From: a virus
Lineage: Duplodnaviria > Heunggongvirae > Uroviricota > Caudoviricetes
Reading direction: 5' to 3' (one strand)
IMG/VR virus record: IMGVR_UViG_2548876964_000023
Length of the DNA stretch: 16,522 nucleotides
In this document: positions 2,024 to 7,665 of the stretch, one piece after another
How the letters are laid out: the number at the start of each line of letters is the position of its first letter
Position numbering within the stretch: the first letter of the stretch is position 1
Notes under the pieces: model-generated
What the model was told of the DNA's origin: nothing
What the model saw: the letters and a program-made list of their open reading frames with translations, nothing else
Databases searched by the model: none
Program-made: the position numbers and the translations under genes

Positions 2024-3094
2024 TTACCCCCTGAAGCCCGGCGGAATTTCGTTATCCGGTTCAGAAATATGATTCACACAACGCTGGTTGTTCGTGCCGC
2101 TTACCGGGAGCAACCAGGGGTTCTCAAAATTCCGGTCCGGTCCAAAAAACGTCGTCGCTCGCTGAACAAATTCCGTTCCCGTTTTCCCGGTAGCCGCCAA
2201 GTATCTTGCGTAACGCCTCACGCCATCCAGCATGGCCTCTGGTGGCACCCCCTCGCGTAATCTGGCCTTCCAGGCACTGAAAGCGGATTTCTTCGGGTTT
2301 GCCCCAGCACGCAACGGGTACTCCCGCCAGACCTGTTCGAACACATCCGGATAATCCACTCGTCCCACAGACTGACCGGTGTTTTCCGGGACTACCCGAT
2401 CGGCTTCCCGCTGAATGGCGGAATCGGCTTCAGGCTGCTGAAGTTGGTGTGATTGCTCCTGCCTTGCGGTCATCACCTGCTGCACAGCGCCCGAATCGGC
2501 TTTCAGCGCATACGCTGAATCGGCTTCCGGTGTCGTGCCTGCTGGCTGACCAGGATTGACGGTCTGAACATCCCCTGCCTGGTTCGTGGCGTTTTTTACG
2601 CCATGGACCATAGTGTTTTGATCTTCTTGATCTGTATCTTTATCTGTATCTTTATCTGTCGTGACTCGTCGTGACATGTGCGTGACATTTCGTGACTCGC
2701 CGTGACAATCGCCATTTTGTTCCCGCTTTCTTTCCCTCTCTCGCTGCGCCCTCTTGCGCTCTGCCGGAGATTTTGCGGTTTGCGAAATATTGCCGTTGTC
2801 CTCTTTCAGCACCTGGCGTTTTTCCCATCCAGTGATTAAATCACCATCAAGTACCCGCCCCTGCATCGTCTGCAAAATTGAATCAATTACCTCTTCTGTC
2901 ACGTCGAGCGCACTTGCCAAATCTTCTGTCGTGACATCAATGTGACCTCGCGTGACATTTCGTGACGCGCTCACCAGGAGGTGGATATACACTGCCATCA
3001 CTGTTGCAATTGGCTGCCCTGACACCCTGGCAATTGTTCGCCACTTAGGGTCATTTGGCATGTCATGCCATAATCTGAGCCAGGCGTTAGCCAT
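2024..3094 (-). CDS. Phage replication initiation / replisome-organizer protein (lambda O-like), with an internal acidic TDKD repeat linker
   Basis: N-terminus (M)ANAWLRLWHDMPNDPKWRTIARVSG resembles the N-terminal domain of phage replisome organizers. Position after the Cro-like and CII-like genes matches lambda O. Two iteron arrays lie inside the gene. Start may be GTG 3100 or ATG 3094 (GAGG upstream). Confidence 0.7.
   Translation of the reverse strand: MANAWLRLWHDMPNDPKWRTIARVSGQPIATVMAVYIHLLVSASRNVTRGHIDVTTEDLASALDVTEEVIDSILQTMQGRVLDGDLITGWEKRQVLKEDNGNISQTAKSPAERKRAQRERERKREQNGDCHGESRNVTHMSRRVTTDKDTDKDTDQEDQNTMVHGVKNATNQAGDVQTVNPGQPAGTTPEADSAYALKADSGAVQQVMTARQEQSHQLQQPEADSAIQREADRVVPENTGQSVGRVDYPDVFEQVWREYPLRAGANPKKSAFSAWKARLREGVPPEAMLDGVRRYARYLAATGKTGTEFVQRATTFFGPDRNFENPWLLPVSGTNNQRCVNHISEPDNEIPPGFRG
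2631..2706. repeat. Origin-like repeat block inside the replication gene: tandem 12-bp TCTGTATCTTTA x2, then five CGTGAC iterons at 10-11 bp spacing (2660, 2670, 2681, 2691, 2701)
   Basis: Direct repeats read from the sequence; helical-turn phasing is typical of initiator-binding iterons. Confidence 0.55.
2898..2966. repeat. Second iteron cluster: CGTGAC/TGTGAC at 2930, 2941, 2951, 2961 plus an inverted copy GTCACG at 2898; GCGTGACATTTCGTGAC is duplicated from 2680-2696
   Basis: Direct and inverted repeats read from the sequence. Confidence 0.5.
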
Positions 3095-3165
3095 ACTCAC
3101 CTCTTCTGATACCGAATCTTTTTACTCACGAGTTGCCGGAAGCGATTCGATACGGCTATTGTCAG

Positions 3166-3591
3166 TCAATGTACTGCCACAGCATTTCCTGCCGGGCCAC
3201 CACGGTTCATCTGATTGAAACCGGCGATTGCCACTGCGACAAAATCATCAGCGTCTCTCACCAGTCGCTCCCGCGTCTCCACCAGCTCCCGAAAATAAGC
3301 TGAACTGTGGCTGCGCATTCTGGCCACCAGCAAAGGTGGCATTGCCTTTTCGATCGCTGGTAACAACGCCTGAATTTTTTCAACTGCATCAGGGGTGTCT
3401 TTCTCTACCCAGCGGAAAATTTTCTGGGTATTGCGAGCCAGGGCTTCCGGATGGCTGTCGTCATACAGTTCAGGAAACGTCATACCCAACTCAAAATAAG
3501 CCTGGGTTATTCCAGCTGCTGGAACTTTTTCGCCATCAGGACGCGCCCAGGCATTCATCGCCATGCGGATGTGTTCATGCTTGATTTTCAT
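3166..3591 (-). CDS. YdaT-like (CII-like) prophage regulatory protein (141 aa)
   Basis: N-terminus MKIKHEH... and size match my recollection of the Rac YdaT family; sits immediately downstream of the Cro-like gene with a 17-nt overlap; AGGAG Shine-Dalgarno. Confidence 0.6.
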   Translation of the reverse strand: MKIKHEHIRMAMNAWARPDGEKVPAAGITQAYFELGMTFPELYDDSHPEALARNTQKIFRWVEKDTPDAVEKIQALLPAIEKAMPPLLVARMRSHSSAYFRELVETRERLVRDADDFVAVAIAGFNQMNRGGPAGNAVAVH

Positions 3592-3856
3592 GAATCAAGC
3601 TCCTAGTAAGTGGTTGTGTTAACGTTTTGGTATCTTCCAGCTCGGGCCAAATATTCATCCAATCAAAAGGCCTTAGTTGCTGACGTGTAACTTCACCATT
3701 ACTGGCTCGCTCAATAAGGACACATAACGATGCCCCTAACATTTGACCTTTACTCAATGCCTTTCTTAGATAACCGATGCTAGTACCACACTCACATGCA
3801 AACATACGCTGTTCATCTGACGAAAGAGAATTGAGAAATATTCTTAATTCTTCCAT
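3575..3856 (-). CDS. Cro/YdaS-like HTH transcriptional regulator (93 aa), functional analogue of DicC
   Basis: HTH-like segment CGTSIGYLRKALSKGQ...; AAGGAG Shine-Dalgarno 6-7 nt upstream; divergent from the repressor gene across an operator-containing intergenic region. Confidence 0.65.
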   Translation of the reverse strand: MEELRIFLNSLSSDEQRMFACECGTSIGYLRKALSKGQMLGASLCVLIERASNGEVTRQQLRPFDWMNIWPELEDTKTLTQPLTRSLIHENQA

Positions 3857-3885
3857 AGCTACTCCTTAGTAAACACAGCAAGAAT

Positions 3886-3920
3886 ACCCACAGGTAAACA
3901 AAAGTCAATACCCTTGGGTT
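3886..3920. promoter_or_regulatory. Operator-like pair between the cro-like and repressor genes: TACCCACAGGTA (3886-3897) and TACCCTTGGGTT (3909-3920), centres 23 bp apart
   Basis: Imperfect inverted repeats sharing the consensus TACCC-NN-GGGTA with the perfect palindromes at 4418-4455. Confidence 0.5.
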
Positions 3921-3955
3921 GTTTACCTTGCGGTAATCGCATCTATTATTTACCT

Positions 3956-4375
3956 ATGGACAAATATGAATTTAGACGACAACAACTCATCAAAATTCGT
4001 GATGAGAAATGCGATGGTAAAGCGGTTAACGTGGCCAGAAAGATCGGTCGCGAGCCTTCTTATGTATCAAGAATGTTGTACCCAGAGGGGAAAAAAGGAA
4101 AAAAACGGATCGCTGATGATATGGTGGAGATTATAGAAGAGTCCTTTGGGTTACCCCGGGGATGGATGGATGGTATCGTTTCATCATCAACGAACACAGC
4201 CTCCAATTATGAAACAAGGGTTCTAACGCCACGACAACGTATTTTTTTAGATCTCTTAGACGAACTGCCAGAAAGTGAAGCGGATAACTTATTAAAAACT
4301 CTTGAAGAGAAAAAACAGTATTACAATATGATCTACGAAGAAATCCGTAAAAAGAAAGCACAAAACGCATCATAA
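3956..4375 (+). CDS. DicA-like prophage repressor (HTH, no peptidase domain); probably translated from a leaderless mRNA
   Basis: Divergent from the cro-like gene. C-terminal LTPRQRIFLDLLDELPESEADNLL resembles my recollection of DicA (…LSPKELELLELFNALPESEQD…). TATTAT at 3944-3949 ends 6 nt before the ATG and there is no Shine-Dalgarno. The TTG at 3914 given in the ORF track is rejected as the start. Confidence 0.65.
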   Translation: MDKYEFRRQQLIKIRDEKCDGKAVNVARKIGREPSYVSRMLYPEGKKGKKRIADDMVEIIEESFGLPRGWMDGIVSSSTNTASNYETRVLTPRQRIFLDLLDELPESEADNLLKTLEEKKQYYNMIYEEIRKKKAQNAS

Positions 4376-4417
4376 CTCACCAAACAACCAGTCACCAGTT
4401 AAGACACATCAAAAAAT

Positions 4418-4455
4418 TACCCATGGGTATTTACTTTTTAAATACCCATGGGTAT
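4418..4455. promoter_or_regulatory. Two perfect palindromic operator-like sites, TACCCATGGGTA at 4418-4429 and ATACCCATGGGTAT at 4442-4455, centres 25 bp apart, upstream of the ydfA-dicF-dicB operon
   Basis: Perfect palindromes read from the sequence; position is analogous to lambda OL/pL. Confidence 0.55.
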
Positions 4456-4640
4456 CCTTCCTTTCATACCAACCCACCCCGTCCCACAGAACGCAGGGCA
4501 ATACTTCGAGTTACCAGGCAGTGGTCAGGGGGTAAGTAGCCAGCCCGAGGCGTAAGAACATGACGGCAGGGTTCAACTTTAATAACTATGCAGCAGGTTT
4601 TTGTTCCGCTACCCCGGCGTTAAGGGGAAATGAGGTCAGC

Positions 4641-4793
4641 ATGGATACTATCGATCTTGGCAACAGCGAATCTCTGGTATGCGGCGTGTTTCCCAACCAG
4701 GACGGTACGTTTACCGCGATGACGTATACCAAAAGTAAAACGTTTAAAACCGAAGCTGGCGCGCATCGCTGGTTAGCAAGAAACTCCGACTGA
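4641..4793 (+). CDS. ydfA: YdfA/YdaF-family small prophage protein (51 aa)
   Basis: MDTIDLGNSESLVCGVFPNQDGTFTAMTYTKSKTFKTEAG... matches my recollection of Qin YdfA; GAGG 7 nt upstream of ATG 4641. The longer ORF from 4560 is rejected. Confidence 0.6.
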   Translation: MDTIDLGNSESLVCGVFPNQDGTFTAMTYTKSKTFKTEAGAHRWLARNSD

Positions 4794-4804
4794 TGAGGTT
4801 GACG

Positions 4805-5443
4805 ATGGAATTTAAAGATTTACCTCCTTCAATCCAGGAGATTGCAGCACACACACTTCGTCATCGTCTGAACGAACTTGAATTGGAATCGGTAACGAAA
4901 AAAGACACTGATAATATGGCTCGTAATGTGCGCGATGCGTTTACCGGATTGTATTTCTGTGCGTCTATAAATAAACACGACTCAGAGAGTGTGGCAAATA
5001 AAATTGCAGAAACGACAGCGCAAAACATCAATACGAAACCAACGGAAGAAGAAATTGATCAGTTTGCTCATGATGCTGGTTTAAAAAACAAGAAAGAAAA
5101 ATCGCCATATGCGGGGAACATGTTTGTTTATGACAATCTCATCAGAATTCGTGGCGAAATTCCGGCGGAATACCTGGCAAGAGTCCATCAGGCATTGCTT
5201 AAAAATTTGGAAACAGAATTATTTGATGGCAACACTAACGGTTTCTTCATGGTATCAGGCCTTGATAAAGACTGGGATGCAGAAAAACGCTGGAATGTTG
5301 CTACATGGTTATTCAGTAACAGAGCCGCTGCACTGGAAGCTTCGGCATGTATTTGCGGCCTGTTCTTAACAGACCACAAATATAATCTGGATGTGTACAG
5401 TTATATTTACGCTGAACACGGTCCACTCTGGATTGACTGGTAA
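4805..5443 (+). CDS. Hypothetical prophage protein (213 aa)
   Basis: ORF with GAGG 6 nt upstream of ATG 4805 (alternative ATG at 4793 overlaps the ydfA stop as TGATG). No recognisable family. Confidence 0.6.
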   Translation: MEFKDLPPSIQEIAAHTLRHRLNELELESVTKKDTDNMARNVRDAFTGLYFCASINKHDSESVANKIAETTAQNINTKPTEEEIDQFAHDAGLKNKKEKSPYAGNMFVYDNLIRIRGEIPAEYLARVHQALLKNLETELFDGNTNGFFMVSGLDKDWDAEKRWNVATWLFSNRAAALEASACICGLFLTDHKYNLDVYSYIYAEHGPLWIDW

Positions 5444-5653
5444 TTATAAGGAAACACCAGCAGGGCCGCGGCGACCAACAGAACGATTAAAATCAATAAT
5501 GCCATTATAAAGGACATTATTTAATTTATCGTCGAATGCTGATTCTGTGAGCCTCAACTCTGAATGAGTTTTTAATAACCCTGATTGCCTGAGTTGATTT
5601 ACCAGGCATTCAATCTGTTTTTCAATAAGCGGATTTCTTTTTTTGTTTGGCAT
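5444..5653 (-). CDS. Hypothetical small protein (70 aa), convergent with the preceding gene
   Basis: ATG at 5653 preceded by GGAGGA at 5 nt; the stop abuts the stop of the plus-strand gene. Confidence 0.45.
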   Translation of the reverse strand: MPNKKRNPLIEKQIECLVNQLRQSGLLKTHSELRLTESAFDDKLNNVLYNGIIDFNRSVGRRGPAGVSL

Positions 5654-5990
5654 TTTATCCTCCATTGAGGTTCTGGGTTAAAAATGGAGACCAACACGCT
5701 GTCACGTGTGGTCGTGCGCCGGACACGGATAAGAATCCGGTACTGACAGTTTACTGAAAGGATATTTCCCTGAAAAGTCAGGGCATAACGCGAAAGCGTA
5801 CGGCGAAGCTCTTTCCCTTAGAAGGCTTGTCGTTAGATTTCTTCGAACGTGCGCTTCCGGTTGTGGCACTCCGCGAAATGGCGCGGCGGTAAGTATGGCG
5901 GGGTTATTCCTTCCCCGTTGAGGACACCGGGTTGTCAGGTTGACCATACGCTTAAGTGACAACCCCGCTGCAACGCCCTCTGTTATCAAT

Positions 5991-6046
5991 TTTCTGGTGA
6001 CGTTTGGCGGTATCAGTTTTACTCCGTGGCTGCTCTGCCGCCCTTT
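5991..6046 (+). ncRNA. dicF: DicF small RNA (Hfq-dependent sRNA that inhibits ftsZ translation), ending in an intrinsic terminator
   Basis: TTTCTGGTGACGTTTGGCGGTATCAGTTTTACTCCGTGGCTGCTCTGCCGCCC followed by TTTTT; near-identical to the DicF sequence as I remember it, and located immediately upstream of dicB as in Qin. Confidence 0.7.
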
Positions 6047-6223
6047 TTAAAGTGAATTTTGTGATGCGGTGAATGCGGCTAAGCGCACGCGGAACAGTTA
6101 AAACAAGCGGTCTTTTACGGGCGTAACGGGAATGCTCTGTATCCGGCGTTAATTGTTAACTGGTTAACGTCACCTGGAGGCACCAGGCACTGCATCACAA
6201 AATTCATTGTTGAGGACGCGATA

Positions 6224-6412
6224 ATGGAAACGTTATTACCAAACGTTAATACGTCTGAAGGTTGTTTTGAAATTGGTGTCACTATCAGTAACCCTGTATT
6301 TACTGAAGATGCCATTAACAAGAGAAAACACGAACGGGAGCTATTAAATAAAATATGCATTCTTTCAATGCTGGCCCGTTTACGTCCGATACAAAAAGGA
6401 TGCTGGCAATGA
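6224..6412 (+). CDS. dicB: Cell-division inhibitor DicB (62 aa)
   Basis: METLLPNVNTSEGCFEIGVTISNPVFTEDAINKRK... matches recalled DicB; GAGGA 7 nt upstream; ATGA overlap with the next gene. Confidence 0.85.
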   Translation: METLLPNVNTSEGCFEIGVTISNPVFTEDAINKRKHERELLNKICILSMLARLRPIQKGCWQ

Positions 6413-6600
6413 ATACAGCATTTGCACTTGTTCTGACAGTTTTTCTTGTTTCCGGAGAGCCAGTTGATATTGCAGTCAGTGTTCACAGGACAATGCAGGA
6501 GTGTGTAACTGCAGCAACCGAACAGAAAATTCCCGGTAACTGTTACCCGGTCGATAAAGTTATTCACCAGGATAATAACGAAATCCCGGCAGGTCTTTAA
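6409..6600 (+). CDS. ydfD: YdfD-like small membrane/lysis protein (63 aa)
   Basis: MNTAFALVLTVFLVSGEPVD... matches recalled Qin YdfD; hydrophobic N-terminus; translationally coupled to dicB; AAGGA upstream. Confidence 0.8.
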   Translation: MNTAFALVLTVFLVSGEPVDIAVSVHRTMQECVTAATEQKIPGNCYPVDKVIHQDNNEIPAGL

Positions 6601-6692
6601 AACAGTTCCGTAATAAACATCCGATTTCATTCTTATATGCCAGCAATGGCAGGGATTTGTTCACCCTTAAATCTGTAATGAGGTAAAACAAA

Positions 6693-7637
6693 ATGAGTAA
6701 AGTCTTTATTTGCGCCGCCATTCCGGACGAACAGGCAATAAAGGAAGAAGGTGCAGTCGCTGTAGCCACTGCCATTGAAGCCGGTGATGAATGTCGCGCC
6801 CGCGCAAAATTTCACTGGCAATTCCTGGAACATTATCCGGCTGCTCAGGACTGCGCTTATAAATTTATTGTCTGCGAGGATAAACCTGGCATACCCCGCC
6901 CTGCCCTCGATTCATGGGATGCTGAATATATGCAGGAAAACCGCTGGGATGAGGAGTCTGCTTCTTTTGTCCCGGTTGAGACTGAATCCTATCCGATGAA
7001 CGTCACTTTTGACAAGCTGGCCCCTGAAGTACAGAACGCTGTCATGGTTAAGTTCGACACATGTGAAAACATCACCGTTGATATGGTTATTAGCGCACAG
7101 GAATTGTTGCAGGAAGACATGGCAACATTCGACGGACATATCGTTGAAGCGTTGATGAAAATGCCAGAAGTTAACACCATGTATCCGGAGCTTAAGTTGC
7201 ACGCCATTGGGTGGGTTAAGCATAAATGTATTCCTGGTGCTAAATGGCCCGAAATTCAGGCAGAGATGCGCATCTGGAAAAAACGTCGCGAAGGTGAACG
7301 CAAGGAAACCGGAAAATACACGTCTGTTGTTGATCTCGCCCGCGCCAGAGCCAATCAACAGTACACTGAAAATTCAACAGGAAAAATCAGCCCGGTCATT
7401 GCTGCCATTCATCGCGAATACAAGCAGACATGGAAAACACTGGATGACGAACTGGCCTACGCTCTCTGGCCTGGTGATGTGGATGCCGGAAACATTGACG
7501 GCAGCATCCATCGCTGGGCAAAAAATGAAGTTATCGACAACGGCCGCGAAGACTGGAAGCGTATCTCGGCATCAATGCGCAAACAGCCTGATGCCCTTCG
7601 CTACGACCGCCAGACTATTTTTTGGCCTTGTCCGTGA
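6693..7637 (+). CDS. YdfE-like prophage protein (314 aa)
   Basis: ORF with GAGG 9 nt upstream; sits where ydfE lies in Qin (dicB-ydfD-ydfE-int). Assigned by synteny, not by sequence recognition. Confidence 0.65.
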   Translation: MSKVFICAAIPDEQAIKEEGAVAVATAIEAGDECRARAKFHWQFLEHYPAAQDCAYKFIVCEDKPGIPRPALDSWDAEYMQENRWDEESASFVPVETESYPMNVTFDKLAPEVQNAVMVKFDTCENITVDMVISAQELLQEDMATFDGHIVEALMKMPEVNTMYPELKLHAIGWVKHKCIPGAKWPEIQAEMRIWKKRREGERKETGKYTSVVDLARARANQQYTENSTGKISPVIAAIHREYKQTWKTLDDELAYALWPGDVDAGNIDGSIHRWAKNEVIDNGREDWKRISASMRKQPDALRYDRQTIFWPCP

Positions 7638-7665
7638 ACGTCCGATCGACATTCACAAAGACCCT

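Follow-up and report, generated by a model that had tools for sequence, protein, structure and literature searches.

Positions 5991–6600 of a 16,522-nucleotide (nt) stretch of Caudoviricetes DNA (IMG/VR record IMGVR_UViG_2548876964_000023; the whole stretch is referred to below as the window) raise the question of whether the small RNA DicF, the division inhibitor DicB and the lysis protein YdfD, known from the Qin prophage of Escherichia coli K-12, are present there in intact form, in what kind of element they lie, and how they would be controlled. We find that 5991–6600 is an intact dicF-dicB-ydfD module in a decayed lambdoid prophage at the tRNA gene serU. Taken as a whole, the evidence makes it highly probable that the locus is a host-takeover module of the dicBF type, which a defective lambdoid prophage carries in its early-left (PL-type) operon, in E. 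coli of the O111 enterohemorrhagic E. coli (EHEC) / bovine lineage. Our confidence in the identity of the dicF, dicB and ydfD parts is very high, and that in the regulatory model of the dicF operon is moderate to high.

The dicF-dicB-ydfD module

The module and the adjoining transcribed sequences consist of the following features:

5854–5990 (+): 5' part of the 190-nt DicF precursor, an RNase III product in K-12 (K-12 alignment)
5991–6043 (+): DicF small RNA, 53 nt (Rfam, predicted fold, K-12 alignment)
6044–6223 (+): dicF-dicB spacer and dicB leader (within the block conserved with K-12)
6224–6412 (+): dicB, MinC-dependent division inhibitor, 62 amino acids (aa) (Pfam, NCBIfam, K-12 alignment)
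6409–6600 (+): ydfD (DUF1482), homologue of the lysis protein, 63 aa (Pfam, PHROGs, K-12 alignment)

A preliminary description, made from the sequence, had reported all three genes as present and apparently intact, and each of them indeed scores above the threshold of a curated family model (Rfam, Pfam, NCBIfam). The Rfam model of DicF (RF00039) matched 5992–6043 on the plus strand with 75 bits (gathering score 48, E = 2.6 × 10−15) over model positions 1–52 of 52, K-12 DicF scoring 76.7 bits on the same model; two tRNAs were the only other families to reach threshold in the Rfam scan of the window. DicB matched Pfam PF05358 with 127.4 bits (cutoff 27) and NCBIfam NF049927 with 132.7 bits (cutoff 100), both over positions 1–62 of 62, and YdfD matched Pfam DUF1482 (PF07358) with 88 bits (cutoff 25); no NCBIfam model matched YdfD. 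The coordinates given in the preliminary description for DicF, DicB and YdfD are right, its DicF end at 6046 falling within the U-run of the terminator.

Direct comparisons were made with Qin as it stands in a genome derived from K-12 (locus L002). Alignment to the Qin dicF, dicB and ydfD genes, which had been proposed as the check on their identity, identifies true homologues that differ by 1 nt, 7 aa and 4 aa, respectively. DicF is identical to the K-12 sequence at 57 of 58 nt (5991–6048), and the one mismatch given in the preliminary description is a G for A at 6029, nt 39 of DicF. In the predicted minimum-free-energy fold, nt 1–15 are unpaired and nt 16–52 form a hairpin followed by UUUUU; the hairpin of this Rho-independent terminator spans 6006–6042 and its U-run extends to 6048, the terminator scan placing a terminator-like site at 6026–6041. 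The change at nt 39 turns a U-A pair of this hairpin into U-G. In the duplex predicted with RNAduplex between DicF and the K-12 ftsZ leader (−60 to +30), to whose ribosome-binding region DicF is complementary, nt 39 lies unpaired in an internal loop, and the duplex energy is −38.5 kcal/mol for both alleles. DicF nt 1–38 are the same as in K-12 and include the 5' part that pairs with xylR (PMC5069750).

DicB is identical to K-12 DicB at 55 of 62 residues, with changes at positions 2, 36, 47, 55, 56, 57 and 61, four of the seven lying within the final eight residues (55–61); its N-terminus reads METLLP, with a K2E change and L5 retained. Mutagenesis of DicB found the last eight residues dispensable, residue 2 required but uncritical in type, and L5 critical (PMC4967827). 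YdfD is identical to its K-12 counterpart at 59 of 63 residues and retains N2, L63 and both cysteines, along with the hydrophobic N-terminal segment expected of the family; lysis by YdfD requires intact termini (PMC8835842). The ydfD start codon overlaps the dicB stop codon by 4 nt (ATGA), as in K-12. Judged from these comparisons, the substitutions at DicF nt 39, in DicB and in YdfD look tolerable. None of the alignments revealed an interrupted frame or loss of the DicF terminator.

The conservation extends beyond the genes. The DNA block 5713–6700 is 92.7% identical to K-12 Qin, and the 190 nt up to and including the DicF 3' end, which are predicted to fold with a long-range duplex, match K-12 at 187 of 190 positions. 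Homology to Qin is confined to 4603–4786 and to the block that begins at 5713 and runs through ydfD into the exonuclease gene (to ~7459), a pattern that bears out the lambdoid mosaicism invoked in the preliminary description. The module is already known and its context is a common one, most E. coli genomes carrying one or more copies: it is present in 4667 of 5426 complete genomes (86%), at a median of two and a maximum of nine places per genome, and also in 59 phage records, and the closest relatives of the window have 4–5 module or dicF copies each. For 493 RefSeq records, among them those of O157:H7 and O145 strains, the best match is the exact DicF allele of the window; for 3318 it is another allele.

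Two side observations concern this region. DicF is unannotated in RefSeq relatives under the exact match, for example at 2463306–2463363 of NZ_AP018802.1 (where 'none' is listed), and its annotation would be worth adding to the records of the closest relatives. Furthermore, 6041–6256 on the plus strand gives a full-length, sub-threshold match to the Rfam family STnc100 (34.7 bits, gathering score 47, E = 3.8 × 10−5), as does K-12 Qin (L002, 6142–6351; 34.4 bits). STnc100 is a small RNA candidate of Salmonella and may correspond there to the dicB leader.

Immunity region and operon upstream of dicF

The gene order from 3166 to 9081 is the standard lambdoid early layout. The features that would control the module, and those that precede dicF in the operon, are:

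3166–3591 (−): CII-like gene, YdaT family (Pfam, PHROGs, K-12 YdaT comparison)
3575–3856 (−): Cro-like gene, distant YdaS-type helix-turn-helix protein (Pfam, PHROGs, K-12 YdaS comparison)
3885–3935 (no strand): predicted right-operator-type (OR-type) cluster where the cro-like and repressor genes diverge (repeats and inverted repeats)
3956–4375 (+): prophage repressor, 139 aa, CI/DicA analogue (phrog_5736 'transcriptional regulator', positions 1–139, E = 4.7 × 10−70)
4418–4454 (no strand): predicted left-operator-type (OL-type) operators, a pair of perfect 12-base-pair (bp) palindromes TACCCATGGGTA spaced 25 bp apart, immediately downstream of the repressor gene
4430–4458 (+): putative early-left promoter, dicBp equivalent (TTTACT, 17 nt, TATCCT, read from the sequence)
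4465–4640 (+): operon leader (identity to Rac)
4641–4793 (+): ydfA/ydaF-type gene (DUF1391), first gene of the operon (Pfam DUF1391, 96.6 bits)
4805–5443 (+): 212-aa gene, at the place of ydfB/ydfC (phrog_2151, full length, E = 2.5 × 10−147)
5444–5653 (−): 69-aa gene on the opposite strand, inside the operon (phrog_4274, E = 1.2 × 10−51)

The immunity specificity differs from that of Qin, as had been proposed: both the N-terminus of the repressor and the operators are unlike those of DicA/DicC. The repressor had been called DicA-like, which holds for its last ~46 aa only (33% identity, E = 1 × 10−7) and not for the rest of the protein; full membership of the DicA family is ruled out by the NCBIfam DicA model, which gives 24 bits against a cutoff of 101 and covers the C-terminal part only. 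The further claim that the helix-turn-helix of the repressor resembles that of Rac did not hold, the BLASTP comparison with RacR giving E = 2.7 and no meaningful alignment, so that a RacR-like repressor was rejected as well. In Pfam, no family matched the repressor and no S24 peptidase (autocleavage) domain was detected. The assignment of cro and cII to the YdaS and YdaT types was right for cII, a distant YdaT relative above the cutoff (Pfam YdaT_toxin 39.6 bits, cutoff 21; phrog_163 'CII-like activator', E = 3.4 × 10−45; 33% identity to K-12 YdaT over the full length, E = 2 × 10−16), and weak for cro, which stays under the YdaS cutoff (Pfam YdaS_toxin 25.9 bits, cutoff 30; phrog_35, E = 2.4 × 10−23; 39% identity to K-12 YdaS over 44 aa). 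Both genes are divergent from the repressor, and their matches are distant ones at the level of the family. By these comparisons, the cro/cII families and the operon leader can be called 'Rac-like'; the repressor cannot.

The motif TACC-N4-GGTA occurs four times in the 16.5-kb window, against 0.12 occurrences expected by chance, and all four lie within 3885–4454. The OR-type cluster contains TACCCACAGGTA at 3885, TACCCTTGGGTT at 3909 and TACCTTGCGGTA at 3924, that is, two motif sites and an imperfect one, which belong to the repeat families D1/D3 and the inverted repeats I1–I3 and overlap promoter-like sites on both strands, at 3908–3881 (−) and 3922–3949 (+). Both OL-type operators overlap the candidate promoter at 4430–4458, the likely promoter of the dicF operon, and the repressor presumably binds the TACC-N4-GGTA sites. 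The scan flagged 4418–4454 as a terminator, which we rejected, the signal coming from two operator palindromes able to pair with each other; sub-threshold Rfam matches of the same positions to mir-2041 and SSRC8_2 were dismissed as palindrome artefacts.

Transcription would start near 4465, right at a mosaic boundary: from this position on, the leader is shared with Rac. Over 4465–4628, it has 86.6% identity to K-12 Rac DNA downstream of racR, and the Rac-like DNA as a whole (4465–4774, leader and ydfA/ydaF-type gene) shows ~86% identity; the ydfA/ydaF-type gene is 90.8% identical to K-12 ydfA at the DNA level. The segment 4465–4560 is present in 3659 of 5426 genomes, whatever their immunity type, whereas the cassette to its left is whole in 822 only, and no Rfam family matches 4465–4628. 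Taken by itself, this leader, which lies downstream of the putative early-left promoter, forms a mosaic unit of its own. Neither the 212-aa nor the 69-aa gene had a match in Pfam, NCBIfam or PADLOC, and their PHROGs families are of unknown function; the 69-aa gene has a promoter-like site at 5681–5652 (−). A role in anti-phage defence was considered for the 212-aa, 69-aa, YdfA-like, DicB, YdfD and repressor proteins and was set aside, PADLOC giving no match. A terminator scan of the plus strand from 4455 to 6026 found no intrinsic-terminator-like site before the DicF terminator.

In K-12, DicA represses dicBp, RNase III and RNase E process the transcript, Rem acts as an antirepressor, and the switch is stochastic (PMC10448788). 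We carried these steps over and read them onto the present locus by sequence. In the lysogen, the 139-aa repressor bound at the two TACCCATGGGTA operators would keep the operon off. Once repression was lifted, a transcript would run from ~4465 through the ydfA-like and 212-aa genes; RNase III and RNase E would cut out DicF, the 3' end of which would be set by its own terminator, and read-through of that terminator would allow DicB and YdfD to be translated. DicF with Hfq would then block translation of ftsZ, DicB would activate MinC against FtsZ rings, and YdfD would inhibit IspG and cause lysis, with filamentation and toxicity as the expected net outcome. The expectation, voiced in the preliminary description, that derepression leads to filamentation is thus a reasonable inference by analogy. 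Because no autocleavage (peptidase) domain was detected in the repressor, derepression would probably need an antirepressor or a stochastic switch, as for Qin and DicA.

Several points weigh against this model. The candidate promoter is weak, matching the consensus at 8 of 12 positions, under the 9/12 threshold of the scan, in which it is unlisted. Binding of the repressor to the operators is read from the placement of the motif. The opposite-strand 69-aa gene and its promoter-like site (5444–5681) lie between the promoter and dicF and could interfere with read-through. The ftsZ pairing was computed with the leader of K-12 ftsZ, not with that of the source strain. Finally, because the Prokaryotic Genome Annotation Pipeline (PGAP) labels the YdfD allele only as 'DUF1482 family protein', not as 'lysis protein YdfD', the functional equivalence of YdfD is assumed.

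The serU prophage and its decay

Positions 2026–16522 of the window are 99.9% identical to the genomes of O111:H8 and O111:H− EHEC strains and of bovine isolates such as E2863. Downstream of the module, the early region ends in two damaged genes and the attachment site:

6693–8316 (+): exonuclease (RecE/ydfE-type) pseudogene (PHROGs; tblastn with the 823-aa exonuclease of phage Tritos; PGAP 'partial')
8317–9081 (+): tyrosine integrase gene, 3' fragment (Pfam Phage_integrase; PGAP 'missing N-terminus')
9134–9223 (−): serU, tRNA-Ser, anticodon CGA (ARAGORN and Rfam)

The prophage is at serU, not at the Qin site, in agreement with the preliminary description: the integrase remnant adjoins serU, its stop codon lying 52 nt from the tRNA gene, the 3' end of serU faces the remnant, and the element is next to mtfA and asnT. 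The last 62 nt of serU (9134–9195) constitute the attachment core at the right attachment site (attR). The repeat shared with the left attachment site (attL) was read in the relative E2863, attL of the source genome lying outside the window; in E2863, a copy of the 62 nt that matches at 60 of 62 positions is found beside yodB, ~50 kb away, at the far prophage end. Genomes with an empty site match the window from ~9118 onward only, and 1144 of 5426 genomes have the integrase-serU junction. The two repeats of E2863 enclose a lambdoid prophage in which genes for head, tail and lysis occur together with nleC, insertions of IS1203 and of an IS66-family element, and a frameshifted tape-measure gene.

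The claim of intactness is correct for dicF, dicB and ydfD and applies to these three only; the exonuclease and integrase genes immediately downstream, passed over in the preliminary description, are degraded. The exonuclease shows a phrog_2081-type match and matches phrog_2082 at positions 1–310 and then from 309 onward in another frame; one additional T, at 7618, shifts the frame relative to E2863, and the gene breaks off after approximately residue 546 of 823. In strain GPEC1185, the prophage at serU is of the same immunity type and comprises a full exonuclease gene, an excisionase-like gene (DUF4224) and an integrase gene of ~350 codons. Against this reference, 1,368 bp are missing from the window at 8317–8319, a deletion that takes ~280 C-terminal exonuclease codons, the DUF4224 excisionase-like gene and 87 N-terminal integrase codons. 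GPEC1185 was used as the gauge of the integrase truncation in place of the Tritos integrase, which gave no match to the window. Having lost, through the frameshift and the deletion, its excisionase-like gene as well as portions of the exonuclease and integrase genes, the element is a grounded, defective prophage like Qin, by way of independent lesions.

In a separate observation, the deletion fuses the exonuclease and integrase genes into a chimeric open reading frame (ORF) of 624 codons (7207–9081). Outside the window, the serU prophage of E2863 (locus L006, 13187–14173 and 39339–47057) carries the type III effector gene nleC beside tail-fibre genes, and its IS66-family element lies between phage tRNA genes and an SASA esterase gene, the place that the stx genes occupy in Shiga toxin (Stx) phages.

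Decay of this extent could mean that the module is merely carried along as a silent relic, never meaningfully expressed and without present function in the genome. The frameshifted and truncated exonuclease, the lost excisionase-like gene and the 5'-truncated integrase would all fit this explanation, as would the IS1203 and IS66-family insertions and the frameshifted tape-measure gene of the same prophage in E2863, and the K-12 operon is tightly repressed under standard conditions (PMC10448788). However, the three genes, the DicF terminator and the precursor are intact and near-identical to functional K-12 alleles, and the immunity cassette and operators are intact too. The recurrence of the exact DicF allele in 493 records and of the module in 86% of genomes, often in multiple copies, is a poor fit to neutral decay, and in K-12 an equally defective prophage yields DicF that accumulates in stationary phase (PMC10448788). 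We consider a silent relic very unlikely.

Expression could also be independent of the early-left operon, with a promoter inside 5654–5990 driving dicF-dicB-ydfD and the opposite-strand gene at 5444–5653 breaking the operon. The position of that gene and its promoter-like site, between the ydfA-like gene and dicF, is in keeping with such an arrangement, and PMC10448788 mentions that a promoter upstream of dicB had been reported earlier. Yet a scan of 5654–6223 finds no promoter-like site on the plus strand, and the region is 92.7% identical to K-12, in which primer extension and Northern blots revealed no internal promoter and the 190-nt species proved to be an RNase III product (PMC10448788). 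We regard this arrangement as highly improbable, and we favour an early-left operon that runs from the candidate promoter at 4430–4458 through dicF, dicB and ydfD and would be held by the 139-aa repressor.

The whole window is not found as one piece in any complete RefSeq E. coli genome: positions 1–2400 are 100% identical to another prophage of the same strains, located near 1.1 Mb, and 15 of the 19 base differences from E2863 fall in 2036–2807, within the replication-organiser gene. The pattern across 1–2025 and 2026–2807 looks like either recombination of two resident prophages in a shared replication gene or an assembly join. On the other side, in 10215–16522, a second island follows asnT (10215–10290); as described from the annotation of the relative E2863, it comprises a P4-type integrase gene (~10470–11744), hypothetical genes, three S-4TM 'pore-forming effector' ORFs (~13767–14683), apparently one gene in pieces, and a pilV shufflon adhesin pseudogene (~14794–16101), after which E2863 has an IS1203 copy that is absent from the window. 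Other strains have a yersiniabactin island at the same asnT site (locus L008).

Relation to known systems and meaning

The closest characterised system is Qin, whose K-12 gene set comprises dicA/dicC, ydfABC, dicF, dicB, ydfD, ydfE and intQ. Repressor, promoter, ydfA-type gene, dicF, dicB, ydfD, exonuclease and integrase follow one another in the same order and with the same strand logic in both elements, and in both the exonuclease is truncated and the integrase broken. They differ in their sites, Qin lying beside rspB (flanked by rspB/ynfA in the K-12 record) and the present element at serU; in their immunity, TGTTAG-type repeats surrounding dicA in Qin vs. TACC-N4-GGTA here, with a different repressor N-terminus and cro-like gene; in the replacement of ydfB and ydfC by the 212-aa gene and the opposite-strand 69-aa gene; and in their lesions, an IS2 insertion in Qin vs. 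a deletion and a frameshift here. That the element is Qin itself is ruled out by the serU position and the non-DicA/DicC immunity; only the module is Qin-like.

Among phage records, the module is found in Tritos (OV696610.1), mEp460_ev081, PhiR42_1, vB_EcoS-640R1 and others. Tritos has a CI repressor of 139 aa, three small genes at the ydfA/B/C positions, an annotated DicF, dicB, ydfD, the 823-aa exonuclease, an excisionase and an integrase; the window is 93.7% identical to it over 5713–6700, and the homology continues to 8316 at 92.1%. Its CI shares position and length with the window repressor, and 41 of 139 residues coincide without gaps, mostly in the C-terminal third, whereas the N-terminal two-thirds differ. 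Unlike those of the window, the exonuclease, excisionase and integrase of Tritos are complete, and the Tritos integrase has no tblastn match to the window remnant. Rac resembles the element in the leader and ydfA/ydaF-type gene described above and in the YdaS/YdaT-family genes on the other side of the repressor, but RacR shows no detectable similarity to the window repressor, and the division inhibitor of Rac is KilR, in place of DicF and DicB. KilR of Rac and Kil of lambda are FtsZ inhibitors of early-left operons.

Multiple dicF/dicBF copies occur in EHEC prophages, namely CP-933O/M/P of O157:H7 and the Sakai prophages (PMC5069750), and dicF has expanded in EHEC to four copies in Sakai and 86-24 (PMC7873438). 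The present copy shares its exact DicF allele with O157:H7 and O145 strains and differs in lying in a serU prophage of the O111/bovine lineage. With DicF, DicB and YdfD already characterised, and with several prophage contexts and the EHEC multicopy state published (PMC5069750, PMC7873438), the importance of the locus beyond correct annotation is slight.

The operator and promoter layout is the only mildly new item here. To our knowledge, this immunity cassette, with its 139-aa repressor in which no autocleavage domain was detected and its 12-bp TACC-N4-GGTA operators, is uncharacterised, and a non-exhaustive literature search found no description of how operators and promoter are arranged in this immunity type. 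The layout provides a concrete, testable handle on the control of this copy, which is relevant to DicF dosage in O111 EHEC. One doubtful possibility is that the cassette places this DicF/DicB/YdfD copy under an induction signal of its own, such as a specific antirepressor, unlike those of the other dicF copies in the same EHEC-lineage genome, and that DicF dosage is then set by several independent prophage switches. If this were true, cell division, and possibly the expression of pchA and of virulence genes of the locus of enterocyte effacement (LEE), would follow those independent switches through the dosage of DicF.

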